Below, piece after piece: positions 8,401-20,582 of a DNA stretch of 64,000 bases. The stretch is taken from assembly GCF_024223415.1 (NCBI RefSeq), contig NZ_CP100500.1; one strand, written 5' to 3'. A program made the translations under genes and the position numbers. The DNA comes from Escherichia coli (GTDB taxonomy: Bacteria; Pseudomonadota; Gammaproteobacteria; Enterobacterales; Enterobacteriaceae). Each line of letters begins with the position of its first letter. Positions within the stretch are counted from its first letter, which is position 1. Under the pieces are notes generated by a model. The model was not told where the DNA came from, did not search any database, and saw only the letters and a program-made list of their open reading frames with translations.

Positions 8401-8716
8401 TGAGTTTTACCGGCACTTCTTCTGCACTGGTTCCGGCATCTGCCCAGACAACCCCGACCAGCGGATCAGAGCCGCTGTTAGTCAGCTGAACTTTTCCGGA
8501 CTTCAGATAAACCTTCTTACCCGTTTTCATGTCATCCGTTTTCAGCTTAGGCAGCATAAACACACCTTCGGTCATACCGTCGCCTGTTTCACCCTGTGGA
8601 ATATCGGTCAGCGCCACCGCAAAAACATCACCCACCTGCACCAGATCTCCGCTGCTGATGGCTGCACTGGCAACAATCGCCACCGTTTTTCCTTCTTCTA
8701 CAAAATTCTTTGCCAT
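8393..8716 (-). CDS. Small head-associated protein (decoration/DUF2190-like), start uncertain
   Basis: ORF downstream of capsid gene; start set at MAKNFVEEGK; family assignment tentative. Confidence 0.4.
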   Translation of the reverse strand: MAKNFVEEGKTVAIVASAAISSGDLVQVGDVFAVALTDIPQGETGDGMTEGVFMLPKLKTDDMKTGKKVYLKSGKVQLTNSGSDPLVGVVWADAGTSAEEVPVKLNV

Positions 8717-16152: not shown

Positions 16153-16617
16153 TTATCTGAGGCATTGCTCTCGAATGTATAGCTGTGCCCCTTCAAGTTG
16201 TTTTTGCATTATTATCAGTCGCTCTCTGAGGGTGAAATAATCCCGTTCAGCGGTGTCTGCCAGTCGGGGGGCGGCTGCATTACCCACGCCGGAGGCGGCG
16301 GTGGCTTCACGCACGGTCTGACAGACTGCTCTGATGCGCAACCGACGACGACCAGCGGCAATATCATCACGAAGAGCATCATTTTCAGCTTTCGCATCAG
16401 CTAATTCCTTCAGGTATTTTGCATCGAGTGCAGTAATATCACGCTGGCGCTGCTGCATGTCAGTAATGGCTGCATTCGCCTGGCTGAGTTTTGTCTTCGC
16501 ATCATCTCTCTGCTCTTTGTAGATGATGGCATTATCGCGGTAATGGGCTATTGCCAGCAACAGCGCACCACTGACCACCAGTAGAATAACAATCACCGCA
16601 TACAGAACCCGTTTCAT
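16153..16617 (-). CDS. Rz i-spanin
   Basis: From MKRVLYAVIVILLVVSG (N-terminal TM) with coiled-coil periplasmic region; Rz1 ORF embedded in +1 frame. Confidence 0.85.
   Translation of the reverse strand: MKRVLYAVIVILLVVSGALLLAIAHYRDNAIIYKEQRDDAKTKLSQANAAITDMQQRQRDITALDAKYLKELADAKAENDALRDDIAAGRRRLRIRAVCQTVREATAASGVGNAAAPRLADTAERDYFTLRERLIIMQKQLEGAQLYIREQCLR
16215..16397 (-). CDS. Rz1 o-spanin lipoprotein (embedded in Rz)
   Basis: 60 aa; lipobox LVVVGC and Pro-rich body PPPPPAWVMQPPPDWQTP; fully nested within Rz in another frame. Confidence 0.8.
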   Translation of the reverse strand: MRKLKMMLFVMILPLVVVGCASEQSVRPCVKPPPPPAWVMQPPPDWQTPLNGIISPSESD

Positions 16618-16914
16618 TTCACCACCAGCGTATCTGAGCAATGAAATAACCGGAGGCCATAATCGCAAACACCAGCCAGAAAAGAATGAATTTCCAGGTG
16701 GATAATTTTTCAGCCATAGTTCGAATCTCCCGAATCAGTTTGCTAAAATCAAACACACTTTCTCCTTTGGCTTTTCCGGAGTCAGGAAACACAAAAAACC
16801 CGACTGTTCGCGCAATCGGGGGTCTGCTCTTATTCACTACTTCAATTCATTTATGACTAATATCGTGTTATCCACCCGCGTTGGCCAACGTCATTTTTCA
16901 GAGAAATATTCTGC

Positions 16915-17448
16915 TTATCTGTCGATCCCCCAGCACACTAACGCGCTCTCCTGATCACGACGAATAACCTGACCGTAACAGTTATTTGAACGAATGCGGC
17001 AATCACGCCCCCTGTCCTTAATCCACCAGCGAATCGCCTCGCATGCACCTTTACGATCACCAGCATTCAGCCGTTTATAAAACGTCGACGGAAAACACTT
17101 ACCGGGGCCAATGTTATAGGGACAAAATGACGCGATACCCGCTTTTTGTGGTTCGGTCAGTGGTACTTTAATATTGCGCTCCACCCATGCCAGAGCCTTA
17201 TCACGCTCAATAGCGTTAACCTGGTCGCATTTTTCCTTCGACAGTTTCATATTGGGAAAAACGGGTTTTCCATCCACCACTGTGGCACCCCGACAGATGG
17301 TCCATATGCCGGAACCATCACGGTATGCCATTGTGTGGTTACCTTCTTTTTCGTCCAGAAACTGGTCAAGTATCTGAGGAGCAGATGCACCAGCACCAAT
17401 CAGCGCCAGAACGGCAGCCGACAGGCCGTATTTGACTTTTACGTTCAT
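16915..17448 (-). CDS. SAR endolysin (phage lysozyme)
   Basis: 177 aa; N-terminal signal-anchor-like hydrophobic stretch YGLSAAVLALIGAGASA followed by lysozyme-like region (…GSGIWTICRG…). Confidence 0.8.
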   Translation of the reverse strand: MNVKVKYGLSAAVLALIGAGASAPQILDQFLDEKEGNHTMAYRDGSGIWTICRGATVVDGKPVFPNMKLSKEKCDQVNAIERDKALAWVERNIKVPLTEPQKAGIASFCPYNIGPGKCFPSTFYKRLNAGDRKGACEAIRWWIKDRGRDCRIRSNNCYGQVIRRDQESALVCWGIDR

Positions 17449-17553
17449 GGATATTTATCAGGATTTATCGATTTCTGAACCCAGGATATGTTTATCTGTC
17501 CCAACCTGTTGAATCAGGCGGAGAACAGGTAAATACAATCAAGAGGATTATTT

Positions 17554-17826
17554 ATGGACAATAACACCATTTCTCTTCAGGAGTTGCTCGACTGCATTTC
17601 CAGGCTTCGGGATGATGTTAATGCCCTTACTGTCGCATTTTCATATCTGGCATTGTCAATTCCCAGGGAACAAATGCAACCAACACTGGCATCGCTCCAG
17701 CTTGAATCACACAGCCCAAAATGGTCCCAGGAACAACAAAATTCCTTCAAGTGGCTGGTGGCATTACTGGAAGATAAATATGCTGTTAAAATTAAAATTC
17801 CGGCGGAGTCTTCAGAGAACCAGTAA
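17554..17826 (+). CDS. Hypothetical protein (inserted in lysis cassette)
   Basis: 90 aa ORF with AAGAGG RBS about 6 nt upstream and promoter-like TTGAAT/TAAATA; convergent with the 114-aa ORF. Confidence 0.4.
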   Translation: MDNNTISLQELLDCISRLRDDVNALTVAFSYLALSIPREQMQPTLASLQLESHSPKWSQEQQNSFKWLVALLEDKYAVKIKIPAESSENQ

Positions 17827-18136
17827 TTTTTCCCGGTAGCTTTACTTTGTAAGTTATCCACACATTCTGCGCCTCTAAAATTATGGGGTGCTTTTCTGGC
17901 GACAGCTCATTCCCTTCACATAACCCGGCAGCAACATCCAGGAAGACCTGTCTGATTCTCCTTCTGGCTGCTGCCTCATAAAACTCCAGTGCAGCACCTT
18001 CAACACGATCCATAGTGATATCAAGGTCAAAAATCTCACCGTCAAAGCGTTCTTTGTCTTGTAAGGCTAAAGTTACCGCAACTTTATTCTCAAAATTACG
18101 GACTCCTTTCACAACCAGTTCGTAGACTTGAGTCAT
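17792..18136 (-). CDS. Hypothetical protein between holin and endolysin
   Basis: 114 aa ORF starting 5 nt after the holin stop on the same strand; no TM segment, no recognisable family. Confidence 0.45.
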   Translation of the reverse strand: MTQVYELVVKGVRNFENKVAVTLALQDKERFDGEIFDLDITMDRVEGAALEFYEAAARRRIRQVFLDVAAGLCEGNELSPEKHPIILEAQNVWITYKVKLPGKITGSLKTPPEF

Positions 18137-18140
18137 TGGA

Positions 18141-18356
18141 TTACTCTCCTCTCTCAGCCTTACGCCTGTCTTCTTTAATCTTGAAATAAAGGTTAGTCAG
18201 ATACGTCAGCATGCCAAATACCAGACTACCCAATACACCTATTGCCGCCCACTGTGAGGGCGTGACTTTATCGAGCAACTGTAAAAACCAGTAGCCAGCA
18301 CTGCCTGCAGAGGTGCCGTAGGCGATGCCCGTTGTTAACTTATCCATGGATTTCAT
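18141..18356 (-). CDS. Holin/pinholin (S21-like, class II) with dual-start motif
   Basis: 71 aa from [28 protein letters not shown]...; two TM segments; the M-K-S-M dual start suggests holin/antiholin forms. Confidence 0.8.
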
Positions 18357-18445
18357 AGCCTCACCTCCGCAGATAACGGATGGTGTACACGGTTTGGTTC
18401 GAAGAAGGAAAAAAGTTACATTAACGTAAGGCCCGAACATCTATT

Positions 18446-18478
18446 CAAAAAGAAAAACGCCAGCAATTATTCTGGCGT
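18446..18478 (-). terminator. Rho-independent terminator downstream of AraC gene, upstream of holin
   Basis: Minus-strand hairpin ACGCCAG-loop-CTGGCGT followed by a T-run. Confidence 0.5.
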
Positions 18479-18539
18479 AGCTGAAAGCATCATACAATTA
18501 TCAAATACGAAAATTACAAAATCATTAAAACGCATCACG

Positions 18540-19280
18540 TTACATCATGTCTTTTTCTAAAAAAAATCTTGATGAATATTGATGGGGAGGAACACCAAAA
18601 TATCTTCTGAAAACACTTACAAAATATGACGTGTTTTCATAACCGCATATCTCAGCAACTTTTCCAACAGAATATAAATTGTAGCTTAATAACCTTTCCG
18701 CCATCACCATTCGCTCTTCAAGAATTAACTTACTAAATGATAAGCCTTCGTGCTTTAATTTTCTTTTTAACAGGCTTTCACTCAGATACAGTCTTGAAGA
18801 TATATCACAAAGTCTCCATGCTGCAGATATATCCGTGTGAATAATAGCCTTAACTTTACTTCCTAAACTATTAAGACATCCAAATAAAAAACTTTGCACT
18901 GTTTTCTCTGAAGATAAGATAGCAAGACATGCAAGTGATATTTGATTTCTAACAAAATCCACAGTTCTGCCATCAAAATTCAAGCATGCAATCAAATTCT
19001 TTAACAATGAAAAATCTTCACATTCCACCATCAAGTATGCCGGATAAAACCTTCTTACAGAAAAAGGTGAGAGTGTGTTGTTTTTAAAGAAATCATTAAC
19101 TGTTTTCTCTTCAACATCTACGATCATTACATGATCTATATTTGATGAAAAAAAATCTTTTAAATTGTAATCAATGAGAACAGCACTTCCTTTTTTAAAC
19201 AAAATATCTTCTTTACCAATTCGGACATCAAACGAGTTCAACACCAAAATGATAGAACATATGTATGGCATATTATCCAC
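18540..19280 (-). CDS. AraC-family transcriptional regulator
   Basis: 246 aa; C-terminal AraC HTH (...VGKVAEICGYENTSYFVSVFRRYFGVPPHQY); AT-rich. Confidence 0.8.
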   Translation of the reverse strand: MDNMPYICSIILVLNSFDVRIGKEDILFKKGSAVLIDYNLKDFFSSNIDHVMIVDVEEKTVNDFFKNNTLSPFSVRRFYPAYLMVECEDFSLLKNLIACLNFDGRTVDFVRNQISLACLAILSSEKTVQSFLFGCLNSLGSKVKAIIHTDISAAWRLCDISSRLYLSESLLKRKLKHEGLSFSKLILEERMVMAERLLSYNLYSVGKVAEICGYENTSYFVSVFRRYFGVPPHQYSSRFFLEKDMM

Positions 19281-19622: not shown

Positions 19623-20582
19623 TTAATTTACCATCAGTCTTAGAGCCAGTTCGTCCGGATAGGGATCGAAGTAATTCTGTGTAAGCAAGTAGTCATTAGG
19701 ATACTCACCCAGATAATGCTTCAGCAGAGTCAACGGCGCAAGAAGAGGTAATGTGCCAGAACGATAGTTAAGTATAACCTCGCTCAACTCTTTACGCTGG
19801 CGTGTACTTAAGTAGTTACTAAAATACCCCTGTATATGCATCAGCACATTCGTGTGATTTTTACGTGATGCAGGTTTTCTGAGAATCGCCATCAGCTTAT
19901 CACGATACACCTCAAAGTATGATTCAAGGTCCGCCCACTCGTGTATTGCAGCCACAAATGGTCCCATATCTTTATAGCCTGCCTGACTATGCGCCAACAA
20001 CTGAAGCTTATAACGACTATGAAAAGCTAATAACTCTCTTCTTGATAATTTCTCCTTGTAAAGGTGATTGAGCTCATGCAAAGCAAAAACTCTTTCAACA
20101 AAATTCTCACGAAGCACTGGATCATGTAATCGCCCATCCTCTTCAACCGGTAGCCAGGAAAACTTTTCCATCAAAGTGCTCGTAAATAGTCCCACTCCAT
20201 CTTTACGACCTCGATTACCATTTTCATCATAGACACGCACGCGCTCCATGCCACAGCTGGGAGATTTAGCACAAACCACAAACCCCGATACATCCTTTAA
20301 TTTGTCCATATAAGAACGACTAAACTCTGTCATTCTCTCTGTCACATCCTCATTCTGGTCGTGGCTGAAACACATCCGTATATTTCCTTGCGTCGAGCGC
20401 ACAAGACGTAGAGCAGGACGCGGAACTGGCAGCCCTATAGCCATTTCCGGACATACTGGTCTGAATGTTACCCATTCCACTAATTTGTCCATTAAAAAGT
20501 CAGCTCTTTTGTGACCACCATCAAAACGAACAGCAGAACCGGCCAAACAACCGCTGATTCCAATCACAGGTTTTTTTATCAT
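19623..20582 (-). CDS. DUF523 (TudS/YbbK-like) - DUF1722 (YbgA-like) fusion protein
   Basis: 319 aa; N-terminal GISGCLAG Cys-containing motif typical of DUF523, C-terminal YbgA-like region; assignment from motif recall. Confidence 0.6.
   Translation of the reverse strand: MIKKPVIGISGCLAGSAVRFDGGHKRADFLMDKLVEWVTFRPVCPEMAIGLPVPRPALRLVRSTQGNIRMCFSHDQNEDVTERMTEFSRSYMDKLKDVSGFVVCAKSPSCGMERVRVYDENGNRGRKDGVGLFTSTLMEKFSWLPVEEDGRLHDPVLRENFVERVFALHELNHLYKEKLSRRELLAFHSRYKLQLLAHSQAGYKDMGPFVAAIHEWADLESYFEVYRDKLMAILRKPASRKNHTNVLMHIQGYFSNYLSTRQRKELSEVILNYRSGTLPLLAPLTLLKHYLGEYPNDYLLTQNYFDPYPDELALRLMVN

Follow-up and report, generated by a model that had tools for sequence, protein, structure and literature searches.

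Two convergent small genes separate the holin and endolysin genes

We analysed a 64,000-nucleotide stretch of Escherichia coli contig NZ_CP100500.1 (hereafter the window) that carries the lysis genes of a prophage. These genes, comprising the pinholin gene, a 114-aa ORF of the ydfR family, the SAR endolysin gene and Rz/Rz1, all lie on the minus strand (Table 1). ydfR is located directly downstream of the holin gene, its ATG 4 nt after the holin stop codon, and the 3' end of the holin gene, with an SD-like GGAGAG, supplies the Shine-Dalgarno sequence of ydfR. On the opposite strand, a 90-aa ORF (ORF90) converges on ydfR and overlaps it by 35 nt (17792-17826), its last 11 codons being the antisense of the ydfR 3' end. 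The downstream neighbour of this gene pair is the endolysin gene, whose product starts with a Gly/Ala-rich segment at its N-terminus.

The original prediction had placed two converging small ORFs between holin and endolysin, and their coordinates, their convergence and the 35-nt overlap were all borne out. PGAP concurs, annotating the same four genes in the identical genome segment of NZ_CP136025 and naming the holin gene 'phage lysis protein EssD'. Both ORFs are genuine accessory genes that break up the holin-endolysin pair, again as had been proposed. Both are also already annotated and common in E. coli, and the locus as reported is an ordinary one. Inspected by eye, the two translations have no TM segment, signal peptide, SAR domain or lipobox, the targeting signals of known lysis accessory proteins such as antiholins, spanins and releasins, and no hydrophobic run longer than about 12 residues.

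Table 1. Genes and sequence features of the lysis region, with positions in the window
Feature	Position	Strand	Remarks
S21/EssD-type class II (pin)holin	18141-18356 (maximal ORF to 18440)	-	71 aa from MKSMDKL; PHROG 9876/20 holin, E=2.6e-36
YdfR-family gene (114-aa ORF)	17792-18136	-	Core plus variable C-terminal module
ydfR conserved DUF1327 core, residues 1-75	17912-18136	-	PF07041; PHROG 406/2091
ydfR variable C-terminal module, residues 76-114 and stop, ending KITGSLKTPPEF	17792-17911	-	Weakly similar to the C-terminal half of forward moron partners
Hairpin GCGCCUC-N9-GGGGUGC followed by UUUUCU	17869-17897	+	43 nt after the ORF90 stop, inside antisense ydfR
ORF90 (90 aa, reverse-oriented small gene)	17554-17826	+	PHROG 2411, E=5.9e-53
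ORF90 Shine-Dalgarno AAGAGGA	17541-17547	+	7 nt before the ATG; GAGGA kept in all family members
Possible 5'-UTR hairpin CCUGUU-GAAUCAGGCGGAG-AACAGG	17505-17529	+	Read from the sequence; weak; located where canonical cassettes have HP1/HP2
Left box CCCAGGATATGTT with -10-like TATGTT	17480-17492	+	Corresponds to the 5' end of the canonical leader (CCCTGGTTAAnGT) in related cassettes
SAR endolysin (lysozyme, RrrQ-like)	16915-17448	-	PHROG 7 endolysin, E=1.5e-60; PGAP 'lysozyme'; downstream neighbour
Rz	16153-16668	-	Lysis gene
Rz1	16215-16397	-	Lysis gene

The 114-aa protein joins a YdfR core to a variable C-terminal module

Neither small protein had been credited with a recognisable domain. For the 114-aa protein this was wrong, as it matches the Pfam family DUF1327/YdfR (PF07041) with E=7.6e-41 over model positions 1-92 of 93, and PGAP calls the identical protein 'YdfR family protein'. 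The AlphaFold model of the core consists of three beta strands followed by a long helix, with pLDDT of 60-84 over residues 1-68. A fold search with YdfR against the PDB gave nothing below E=0.1; the top match, a PUR repeat (E=0.19, TM 0.22), was too weak to be used as a fold relative.

One relative is YdfR of the K-12 prophage Qin, which is 72% identical to the window protein overall and about 86% identical over residues 1-72, as counted from the alignment. In the K-12 protein, residues 1-72 are reported to constitute the RNase E-interacting part (PMC13232886). K-12 YdfR binds RNase E's N-terminal (catalytic) domain in BACTH and co-purification experiments and pulls down RNA; this RNase E link comes from one study with overproduced, tagged K-12 protein, whose authors consider a contaminant possible in the RNA pull-down (PMC13232886). 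Our search of the DUF1327 literature returned nothing functional beyond that paper.

Both proteins belong to the same family and occupy the same slot, which in Qin lies between the holin gene essQ and the lysozyme gene rrrQ. However, the K-12 protein has 103 aa and an unrelated C-terminus, and its gene directly abuts rrrQ without an ORF90, whereas the window protein ends in KITGSLKTPPEF. The gene order S-ydfR-R is found again in K-12 Qin, BP-4795, 606R7 and Perceval, and ydfR accompanies S21-type holin/SAR-endolysin cassettes in every example examined.

ORF90 belongs to a widespread family under purifying selection

The ORF90 frame shows dN/dS values of 0.15-0.33, while most other frames are at about 1 or more. 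One mirror frame is equally low, but stop codons interrupt it in homologues. In-frame indels occur among homologues, and homologues of 28-41% identity are spread across Enterobacterales in varied contexts. Beside iha, a 90-aa copy with 59% amino-acid identity is still intact although the lysis genes around it have decayed; other copies are truncated or frameshifted. Judged from these sequence comparisons, ORF90 is a real gene under purifying selection.

ORF90 has no match in Pfam. Its AlphaFold model has four helices (pLDDT 73), and the product is predicted to be a cytoplasmic four-helix protein. A fold search with this model against the PDB and BFVD found nothing below E=0.1, and sequence searches against solved structures, with single sequences as well as profiles, gave nothing significant. 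We also considered ORF90 as an inverted copy of the C-terminal extension found in the long YdfR variants and rejected this idea after BLASTP returned no match between the two.

The two genes occur independently of each other

DNA of the ydfR core is present at 8500 places in 4340 of 5426 complete E. coli genomes (80%), and ORF90 DNA at 1352 places in 1220 of the same 5426 (22%). ORF90 is present beside about 16% of the ydfR copies and missing beside about 84%. Conversely, relatives of ORF90 occur without ydfR: next to iha, on an IncF plasmid and at chromosomal loci. The Rac remnant of E. coli B carries both genes, in the order essD-ydfR-ORF90-rrrQ.

This distribution speaks against the single two-gene insertion that had been suggested. 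Related holin-endolysin junctions, as in the phages 606R7 and BP-4795 and in K-12 Qin, have S-ydfR-R without ORF90, and the alignment has an indel of about 300 bp separating the ydfR stop from the R start. The same ydfR-R slot is occupied in phage Perceval by a different reverse ORF (ORF79, phrog_21218). A 10-nt direct repeat, TCAGGCGGAG / TCCGGCGGAG, flanks the ORF90 insert; since we estimate that about three such pairs are expected by chance, it is not read as a target-site duplication.

Relatives of ORF90 lie in convergent cassettes with a shared leader

Genes of the ORF90 family were found at no fewer than five other prophage positions, including the junction of tail genes I and J, that of M and L, and a site upstream of a holin gene. 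In every case the gene is reversed and overlaps with a small forward gene at the latter's 3' end. The convergence seen in the window is not accidental, in agreement with the original prediction. Relatives in Citrobacter, Serratia, Yersinia and Atlantibacter prophages likewise converge on and overlap such a gene. Without exception, the forward partner points in the direction of the surrounding operon and the cargo gene is antisense to it.

Homology links the forward partners to one another and to the C-terminal modules of YdfR variants. The extension of a 161-aa YdfR variant is 44% identical to the Citrobacter partner (E=1e-10). For the window protein, the similarity of residues 79-111 to the same partner is weak and confined to a short motif (BLASTP E=1e-3; hhalign E=0.0022, probability 13%). 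The motif (K/R)(I/L)(T/S/F)G(S/D/E)(L/I) is found in seven of eight partner sequences and six of seven contexts, the locus L018 being without it.

Upstream of the reverse gene, most of these cassettes carry a leader of about 95 nt that consists of the box CCCTGGTTAAnGT, UCAGCC, the hairpin HP1 and GGAUGGCUGAUUA. This canonical leader precedes ORF90-family genes at the loci L011, L013, L027, L033 and L018 (nhmmer E between 1e-12 and 1e-25), and thus most of the distant ORF90 relatives. Perceval ORF79 has it too (nhmmer E=5e-13). Two conserved ends, the leader and, opposite it, the partner N-terminus MTLEQRVEALEK, enclose a hypervariable centre made up of the cargo and the partner C-terminus.

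Rfam searches of the window region and seven related loci gave no family for the leader. RNAalifold on an automatic alignment recovered the invariant UCAGCC/GGCUGA helix alone, and HP1 was scored by anchored extraction. Across the cassettes that we tentatively group below as a class, the leader boxes UCAGCC and GGCUGA are invariant and complementary, a hairpin of 7-8 bp appears to covary, and at least 23 unrelated small cargo proteins are found together with variable partner tails. A mini-ORF in the leader, ATGGCTGAT... (MADYL), is probably not coding because its frame and stop are not conserved. Literature searches with leader sequence strings, the partner peptide and the protein accessions returned nothing functional.

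The cassettes resemble the moron and reverse moron of HK97 and HK022

The canonical leader is also found upstream of HK022 gp23 ('srb', moron) and of HK97 Gp23 ('reverse moron product'), both of which converge on a gp22 ('moron'). Such 'reverse moron' cassettes were first annotated in HK97 and HK022, where they have been on record since 2000. In these phages the small forward gene and the reverse gene converge and overlap, and the pair separates two late genes that are direct neighbours in related phages; ORF90 is likewise a reverse small ORF, present or absent between ydfR and R, and the forward sequence overlapping it is the YdfR tail. The HK022 and HK97 pairs are located between tail genes I and J. 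The window copy instead lies within the lysis cassette, its leader keeps the left box only, and its forward partner would be a remnant joined to YdfR.

At the protein level, ORF90 has the central helix motif DVNALTVAFSYLALSIP in common with HK022 Srb (EVTALKLAFGLLFARLP). The ORF90 family profile matches Srb weakly (E=0.019) and two other cargo proteins at about 1e-4; BLASTP finds no link between ORF90 and Srb. Perceval ORF79, which occupies the ORF90 slot, clusters with HK022 Srb by BLASTP. A direct homology between ORF90 and ORF79 was rejected after BLASTP and hhalign both found none, the two being linked only through the shared motif and the shared slot. The literature on 'srb' and 'reverse moron' held no function for Srb or Gp23.

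Classical lambdoid morons such as lambda bor and lom and HK97 gp15 are optional genes whose expression from the prophage is presumed not to depend on late transcription, and they encode envelope proteins with known host phenotypes. ORF90 resembles them in being present or absent between conserved late genes. It differs in being a predicted soluble helical protein, and its family cassettes have a conserved, apparently structured leader and a convergent partner.

Signals around ORF90 are weak

ORF90 had been thought to have promoter-like elements of its own. A consensus sigma-70 scan of 16800-18600 detected no promoter, against 3.3 expected by chance, and what remains is the weak conserved box CCCAGGATATGTT with a -10-like TATGTT. 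This left box alone is retained from the canonical leader, a search with which (nhmmer) gave no significant match to 17449-17553. The box is also retained at 'empty' ydfR-R junctions, and in BP-4795 the leader is preserved over its first half (nhmmer E=0.0033). A Smith-Waterman comparison of the region upstream of ORF90 with that of the Atlantibacter copy was not significant, as 31 of 300 shuffles reached its score; the left box common to the two is clear only in the multiple alignment.

The CCUGUU/AACAGG stem of the possible 5'-UTR hairpin is kept in LS4 and nearly kept in Chlobot, with no significant match to the canonical leader HMM. Beyond the ORF90 stop, the hairpin at 17869-17897 is a possible weak terminator for ORF90, its fold z of -1.9 being not significant. 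A terminator scan of the ORF90 surroundings found no terminator and missed this hairpin, which we attribute to its 9-nt loop.

Interpretation: two accessory elements of the late region

Taken together, we favor a reading in which the interval holds two separate accessory elements of the lambdoid late region, ydfR and a diverged moron/reverse-moron cassette that contains ORF90 and is expressed in the lysogenic phase, and we assign this explanation as a whole, including ORF90 as an accessory gene of the "moron / reverse moron" type, a probability of roughly 55%. Neither element would be part of the envelope-disruption machinery. ydfR would be a late gene translationally coupled to the pinholin gene, and the most likely role of its DUF1327 core is in cytoplasmic RNA metabolism, as an RNA-associated protein that binds RNase E; this role is transferred from the K-12 orthologue. 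Downstream of the core would sit a diverged form of the mobile convergent cassette of the HK97/HK022 kind, its forward half reduced to a 39-residue tail fused to YdfR and its reverse half represented by ORF90.

Because ORF90 is antisense within the Q-dependent late transcript, we infer that a weak promoter of its own drives it in the lysogen. Once the lysis operon fires, convergent late transcription and antisense RNA would silence it, and the YdfR-tail fusion would be made only late, giving a reciprocal lysogenic/lytic pattern. ORF90 may then serve as an accessory protein of the lysogen phase, with lytic growth switching off or countering its activity. ORF90 and the YdfR tail may also interact.

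A related but unlikely reading makes the two proteins an effector and its cognate antagonist, with ORF90 and the variable tail of the forward partner as a co-evolving, interacting pair; ORF90 might, for example, exclude incoming phages in lysogens and be neutralised by the late partner. The conserved cassette ends around a hypervariable centre that spans both cargo and partner C-terminus would fit such a pairing, as would the fixed orientations of partner and cargo. Yet a strict pattern picked out a partner with a MTLEQRVE-type N-terminus in no more than 38 of 107 cassettes, the window partner is only the 39-residue remnant, and YdfR variants with the same tail exist without ORF90.

We give a smaller chance to a lysis-timing module, in which YdfR, ORF90 or the two together influence the triggering of the pinholin or the release of the SAR endolysin. 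This reading draws on the position between S and R, on the translational coupling of ydfR to S and its tight association with S21-type holin/SAR-endolysin cassettes, and on a genome-wide screen that marked ydfR as important for envelope integrity (PMC13232886). That mutant phenotype could stem from a polar effect that an inserted cassette has on the lysozyme gene downstream. The membrane and periplasm are where pinholin and SAR endolysin are controlled, whereas both proteins appear by sequence inspection to be without signal peptide or TM segment and their predicted models are soluble, beta-beta-beta-alpha for YdfR and four-helix for ORF90. The S21 family, moreover, already encodes its own antiholin, through a dual start, and many functional phages of this type have no ORF90.

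The original prediction had also raised a toxin-antitoxin or abortive-infection pair, one small protein being toxic and the other neutralising it, with the convergent overlap providing antisense control. Like type II modules, the window pair consists of two small adjacent genes in a mobile element. At six or more unrelated prophage positions, an ORF90-family gene and a small forward gene are convergent with overlapping 3' ends, and each half varies strongly between ends that are conserved, a pattern that recalls polymorphic toxin/immunity loci. In contrast to such modules, the pair is convergent rather than operonic, and the two genes are not obligately linked, given the large majority of ydfR copies without ORF90 and the ORF90 relatives that stand alone. 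PADLOC returned no family at E<=1 for either protein, Pfam and NCBIfam no toxin or antitoxin domains, and overproduction of the K-12 YdfR orthologue causes no growth defect (PMC13232886). We consider this module improbable.

That ORF90 is a spurious antisense ORF and the interval a mere long ydfR-R spacer is hardly credible: the want of a consensus promoter, the last 11 codons that are simply antisense of ydfR and the truncated or frameshifted copies would suit it, but selection is specific to the ORF90 frame and a mirror that is interrupted in homologues, distant homologues persist in differing contexts across Enterobacterales, and the gene is retained where flanking lysis genes have decayed.

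Implications

The locus is annotated in over a thousand E. coli genomes, E. coli B among them, and neither gene is needed to explain lysis. With ydfR and a diverged moron/reverse-moron cassette as the preferred reading, the value of the locus is as an entry point, linking the YdfR family, a reported RNase E binder, to the 'reverse moron' cassettes of HK97 and HK022. Cassettes with a shared, apparently structured leader carry many different small proteins at many late-operon sites. We tentatively suggest, as a possibility rather than an expectation, that the hypervariable convergent two-gene cassettes of Gammaproteobacteria temperate phages are a large, apparently undescribed class with ORF90 as a diverged member, forming a portable platform that is on in the lysogen and off in lytic growth.

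If such a portable lysogen-on platform exists, its cargo could have roles in an arms race, as in superinfection exclusion or counter-defence, and the leader would be a new cis-regulatory RNA element. Should the leader prove to be a regulatory RNA, or the cargo to act in phage-phage or phage-host conflict, these cassettes would represent a sizeable unexplored reservoir of small prophage effectors.

A convergent gene pair in the lysis region

Between ~16.1 and 19.3 kb the window contains the late region of an E. coli lambdoid prophage, whose reading direction is the minus strand. The gene pair described between its holin and endolysin in the original prediction is confirmed, since both ORFs lie where they had been placed and PGAP annotates the same four genes in an identical segment of E. 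coli GDSC2BY4G (EssD, 'YdfR family protein', 'hypothetical protein' and lysozyme). The 114-aa ORF, ydfR, starts 4 nt past the holin stop with GGAGAG ahead of it. Its predicted 35-nt overlap with the opposite-strand ORF of 90 aa (ORF90) is present, as is the ribosome-binding site of ORF90 (AAGAGGA). The promoter-like elements attributed to ORF90 fared less well: a consensus scan found no promoter, and a conserved -10-like TATGTT lies ahead of the gene.

Positions of features in the window and at comparison loci (L-numbers)
Feature	Coordinates	Strand	Setting
YbgA-family gene	19623-20582	-	window
AraC-type regulator	18540-19280	-	late region of window
S21/EssD-type pinholin	18141-18356	-	late region of window
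ydfR, 114-aa ORF	17792-18136	-	late region of window
ORF90, 90 aa	17554-17826	+	late region of window
10-nt direct repeat	17514-17523, 17799-17808		window
-10-like TATGTT	17487-17492		window
SAR endolysin	16915-17448	-	late region of window
Small ORF	16619-16837	-	window
Rz	16153-16668	-	late region of window
Rz1	16215-16397	-	late region of window
IS2	L001:10396-11624		GDSC2BY4G
Small 'hypothetical' genes	L008:274-622		related cassettes
ydfR	L010:3555-3866		K-12
essD-ydfR-ORF90-rrrQ	L020:5050-5322		E. coli B
ORF90 homologue	L007:3033-3305		by iha
ORF90 homologue	L006:3039-3293		IncF plasmid
isrI match	L021:5429-5526	-	Citrobacter prophage
Leader	L013:3889-3996, L011:3883-3999, L004:1513-1610		also viral contigs L036-L155
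Leader	L156:1501-1605		HK022
Leader ahead of DUF1883 gene	L034:2070-2150, L028:2585-2670		chromosomal, non-phage
Paired cassettes	L049:356-844, L049:4481-4941		lambdoid tail region

The stretch from the Q antiterminator region to the holin contains a YdeO/AppY-like AraC-family regulator, whose G+C is very low (29-34%), and also a YbgA-family gene, to which the matching genome adds a lipocalin gene; this stretch is cargo in the late-operon leader. In the ~300-nt gap between endolysin and Rz is a small ORF that resembles a single transmembrane segment in its C-terminal part (MAEKLSTWKFILFWLVFAIMASGYFIAQIRWW), and small 'hypothetical' genes are annotated at this position in related cassettes. In GDSC2BY4G, the closest complete genome, an IS2 insertion, which is missing from the window, adjoins the Rz 'lysis protein' gene.

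The 114-aa protein belongs to the YdfR family

The 114-aa protein had been said to have no recognisable domain, which is wrong: Pfam identifies it as a full-length member of the DUF1327/YdfR family (E=7.6e-41), and it matches PHROG 406/2091. Of 5426 complete E. coli genomes, 4340 contain the ydfR core DNA, with 8500 places in total, and the order holin-ydfR-lysozyme is common to the K-12 Qin prophage and phages BP-4795, 606R7 and Perceval. Family members have a conserved core of ~75 residues and interchangeable C-termini, with variants of 103, 104, 114, 116, 161, 176 and 183 aa. AlphaFold models the core, with moderate confidence, as three strands and a long helix, the tail being unreliable; neither fold nor sequence searches gave a significant match to solved structures.

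In two-hybrid and co-purification experiments, K-12 YdfR interacts through its residues 1-72 with RNase E, at the N-terminal, catalytic half of the enzyme; DNase-resistant nucleic acid co-purifies with the protein, few transcripts are altered by it and its overproduction does not slow growth (2026, PMC13232886). We found no functional data on the family in the literature beyond this study. Over K-12 residues 1-72, the window protein is ~86% identical (our own count from the alignment). A genome-wide screen, as cited in PMC13232886, flagged ydfR as important for envelope integrity; an inserted cassette may have caused this phenotype through a polar effect on rrrQ, the lysozyme gene downstream.

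ORF90 and the indel that carries it

As predicted, ORF90 has no recognisable domain: searches of Pfam, NCBIfam and PADLOC gave no match. It aligns over its whole length with PHROG 2411 (E=5.9e-53), and its DNA is found in 1220 of 5426 E. coli genomes. Between diverged copies, pairwise dN/dS is 0.15-0.33 in the ORF90 frame and ~1 or more in most other frames; one mirror frame is equally low, and stop codons break it in three of the four homologues examined. Some homologues differ by in-frame indels. A copy beside the iha adhesin gene, at 59% amino acid identity, is still a 90-codon ORF, while the flanking remnants (endolysin 5' end, ydfR 3' end) have decayed. Judged by this pattern of sequence evolution, ORF90 is a real gene. 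Its model is a four-helix bundle (pLDDT 73) for which fold searches returned no significant structural neighbour.

The iha-side copy lies outside prophages, divergent from the adhesin/siderophore receptor gene in an IS-rich island, and occurs in 57 genomes. Another non-prophage homologue, on an IncF plasmid downstream of an autotransporter, seems to have lost 1 nt from an A-run at its 5' end; P0182, which is intact, starts MMKKNISIG. The E. coli B Rac prophage remnant next to trkG carries essD-ydfR-ORF90-rrrQ, and widely used B-lineage strains should therefore suit ORF90 expression tests.

Comparison with related holin-endolysin junctions does not support the proposed insertion of both genes as one unit. 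In an alignment of five cassettes, ORF90 lies on an indel of ~300 bp that is located between the endolysin leader and the stop codon of ydfR. The last 11 codons of ORF90 are plain antisense of the conserved ydfR 3' end. The indel is absent from 606R7 and BP-4795, where ydfR stays. ORF90 accompanies about one-sixth of ydfR copies and the two genes are found independently of each other, which argues against a single two-gene insertion. In Perceval, the same slot is occupied by another reverse ORF, unannotated and 79 aa long (ORF79; phrog_21218). An imperfect 10-nt direct repeat (TCAGGCGGAG / TCCGGCGGAG, spacing 285 nt), which by our own estimate could be chance, brackets the ORF90 insert; 'empty' junctions have one copy.

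Relatives of ORF90 and their convergent partners

An exhaustive HMMER search and a separate profile search recovered ORF90 relatives (28-55% identity) in Citrobacter, Serratia, Yersinia, Atlantibacter and Sodalis. Their prophage sites are directly upstream of holin, between tail genes I and J or M and L, by a cI-like repressor or in the early region, and near terminase genes. In all prophage cases the relative is antisense to the surrounding operon and extends into the 3' end of a small forward gene (52-85 codons); the convergent geometry of the predicted pair appears to be a trait of the family and not chance.

The forward partners are mutually homologous, most having an N-terminal TLEQRVE.LE coiled coil and seven of eight sequences a C-terminal (K/R)(I/L)(T/S/F)G(S/D/E)(L/I) motif. 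Compared with the Citrobacter partner, the 161-aa YdfR variant has 44% identity in its extension (E=1e-10); the window YdfR tail (...KITGSLKTPPEF) matches more weakly (E=1e-3; hhalign E=0.0022, probability 13%). The partners appear related to YdfR C-terminal modules, and because of this relationship the window protein looks like a DUF1327 core fused to a partner remnant. A Citrobacter prophage with an ORF90 relative also carries a full-length match to the Hfq-binding sRNA isrI (RF01392, 51.7 bits, above the gathering score).

A conserved leader precedes diverse reverse genes

Most ORF90 relatives and Perceval ORF79 are preceded by a conserved leader of ~95 nt. Its elements are the box CCCTGGTTAAnGT, UCAGCC (invariant), hairpin HP1, GGAUGGCUGAUUA with a short stem flanking it, and a Shine-Dalgarno sequence with the ATG. 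At least 120 viral contigs matched a 17-nt leader pattern, of which a few dozen could be chance by our rough estimate for a collection this large. Among the matches listed, 106 of 121 have the UCAGCC (CAGCC) box upstream and a small ORF after (50-211 codons, median 73), and 77 of 81 unique leaders have HP1, with a 7-8 bp stem and many compensatory variants. The mean HP1 stem is 7.1 bp versus 2.4 bp in shuffled sequences, and the complementary UCAGCC/GGCUGA is almost invariant. The leader, apparently structured, matches no Rfam family. The 91 distinct proteins downstream, again among the matches listed, form 23 BLASTP clusters, and a convergent partner with a MTLEQRVEALEK N-terminus was detected in 38 of 107 such cassettes (median overlap 21 nt).

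In the window only the 5' box of the leader survives, with no significant nhmmer match. The 'empty' BP-4795 junction retains the first half (nhmmer E=0.0033), which suggests a deletion scar. One lambdoid tail region has two cassettes ~4 kb apart, either side of the tape-measure gene; their cargo ORFs differ (72 and 65 aa) and both convergent partners start M(N/T)LEQRVEALEKA. At a chromosomal non-phage locus the leader stands ahead of a DUF1883 gene (nhmmer E ~1e-6), with an ORF90-family gene ~600 bp further downstream, adjoining an HxlR regulator.

By blastn the leader is also found in HK022, HK97, ES18, HK633, mEp213, mEp043 and SPN3UB. The HK022 and HK97 copies sit in the interval between tail genes I and J and precede gp23, which converges on gp22 ('moron product') and which GenBank calls 'srb protein; moron gene product' and 'reverse moron product', respectively. 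Perceval ORF79 clusters with HK022 Srb. ORF90 and Srb have a central helix motif in common (DVNALTVAFSYLALSIP against EVTALKLAFGLLFARLP), and the ORF90 profile matches are weak (Srb, E=0.019; two other cargo proteins, ~1e-4).

Possible roles of the gene pair

The ydfR gene has the same orientation as the pinholin gene, with which it is coupled. The late transcript has to pass through ORF90, to which it is antisense, on its way to the endolysin gene. ORF90 would be expressed in the lysogen from its own weak promoter; convergent Q-dependent transcription would shut it off, and the YdfR fusion would be made late. YdfR would probably act on RNA turnover via RNase E, not on the envelope. The roles proposed originally are both improbable: a lysis-timing module because YdfR and ORF90 are apparently soluble and cytoplasmic, and, at slightly longer odds, a toxin-antitoxin or abortive-infection pair because no family signature was found in PADLOC, Pfam or NCBIfam, linkage of the two genes is not obligate and K-12 YdfR is non-toxic (PMC13232886).

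The locus is real yet largely ordinary, pairing a known DUF family with a probable reverse moron of the type annotated in HK97 and HK022. We found no description of the cassette family in the literature, and the claim for it rests on our own analysis of ~100 loci. Of more interest is a by-product, the large hypervariable family that such cassettes would make up, in which the leader is conserved and apparently structured.
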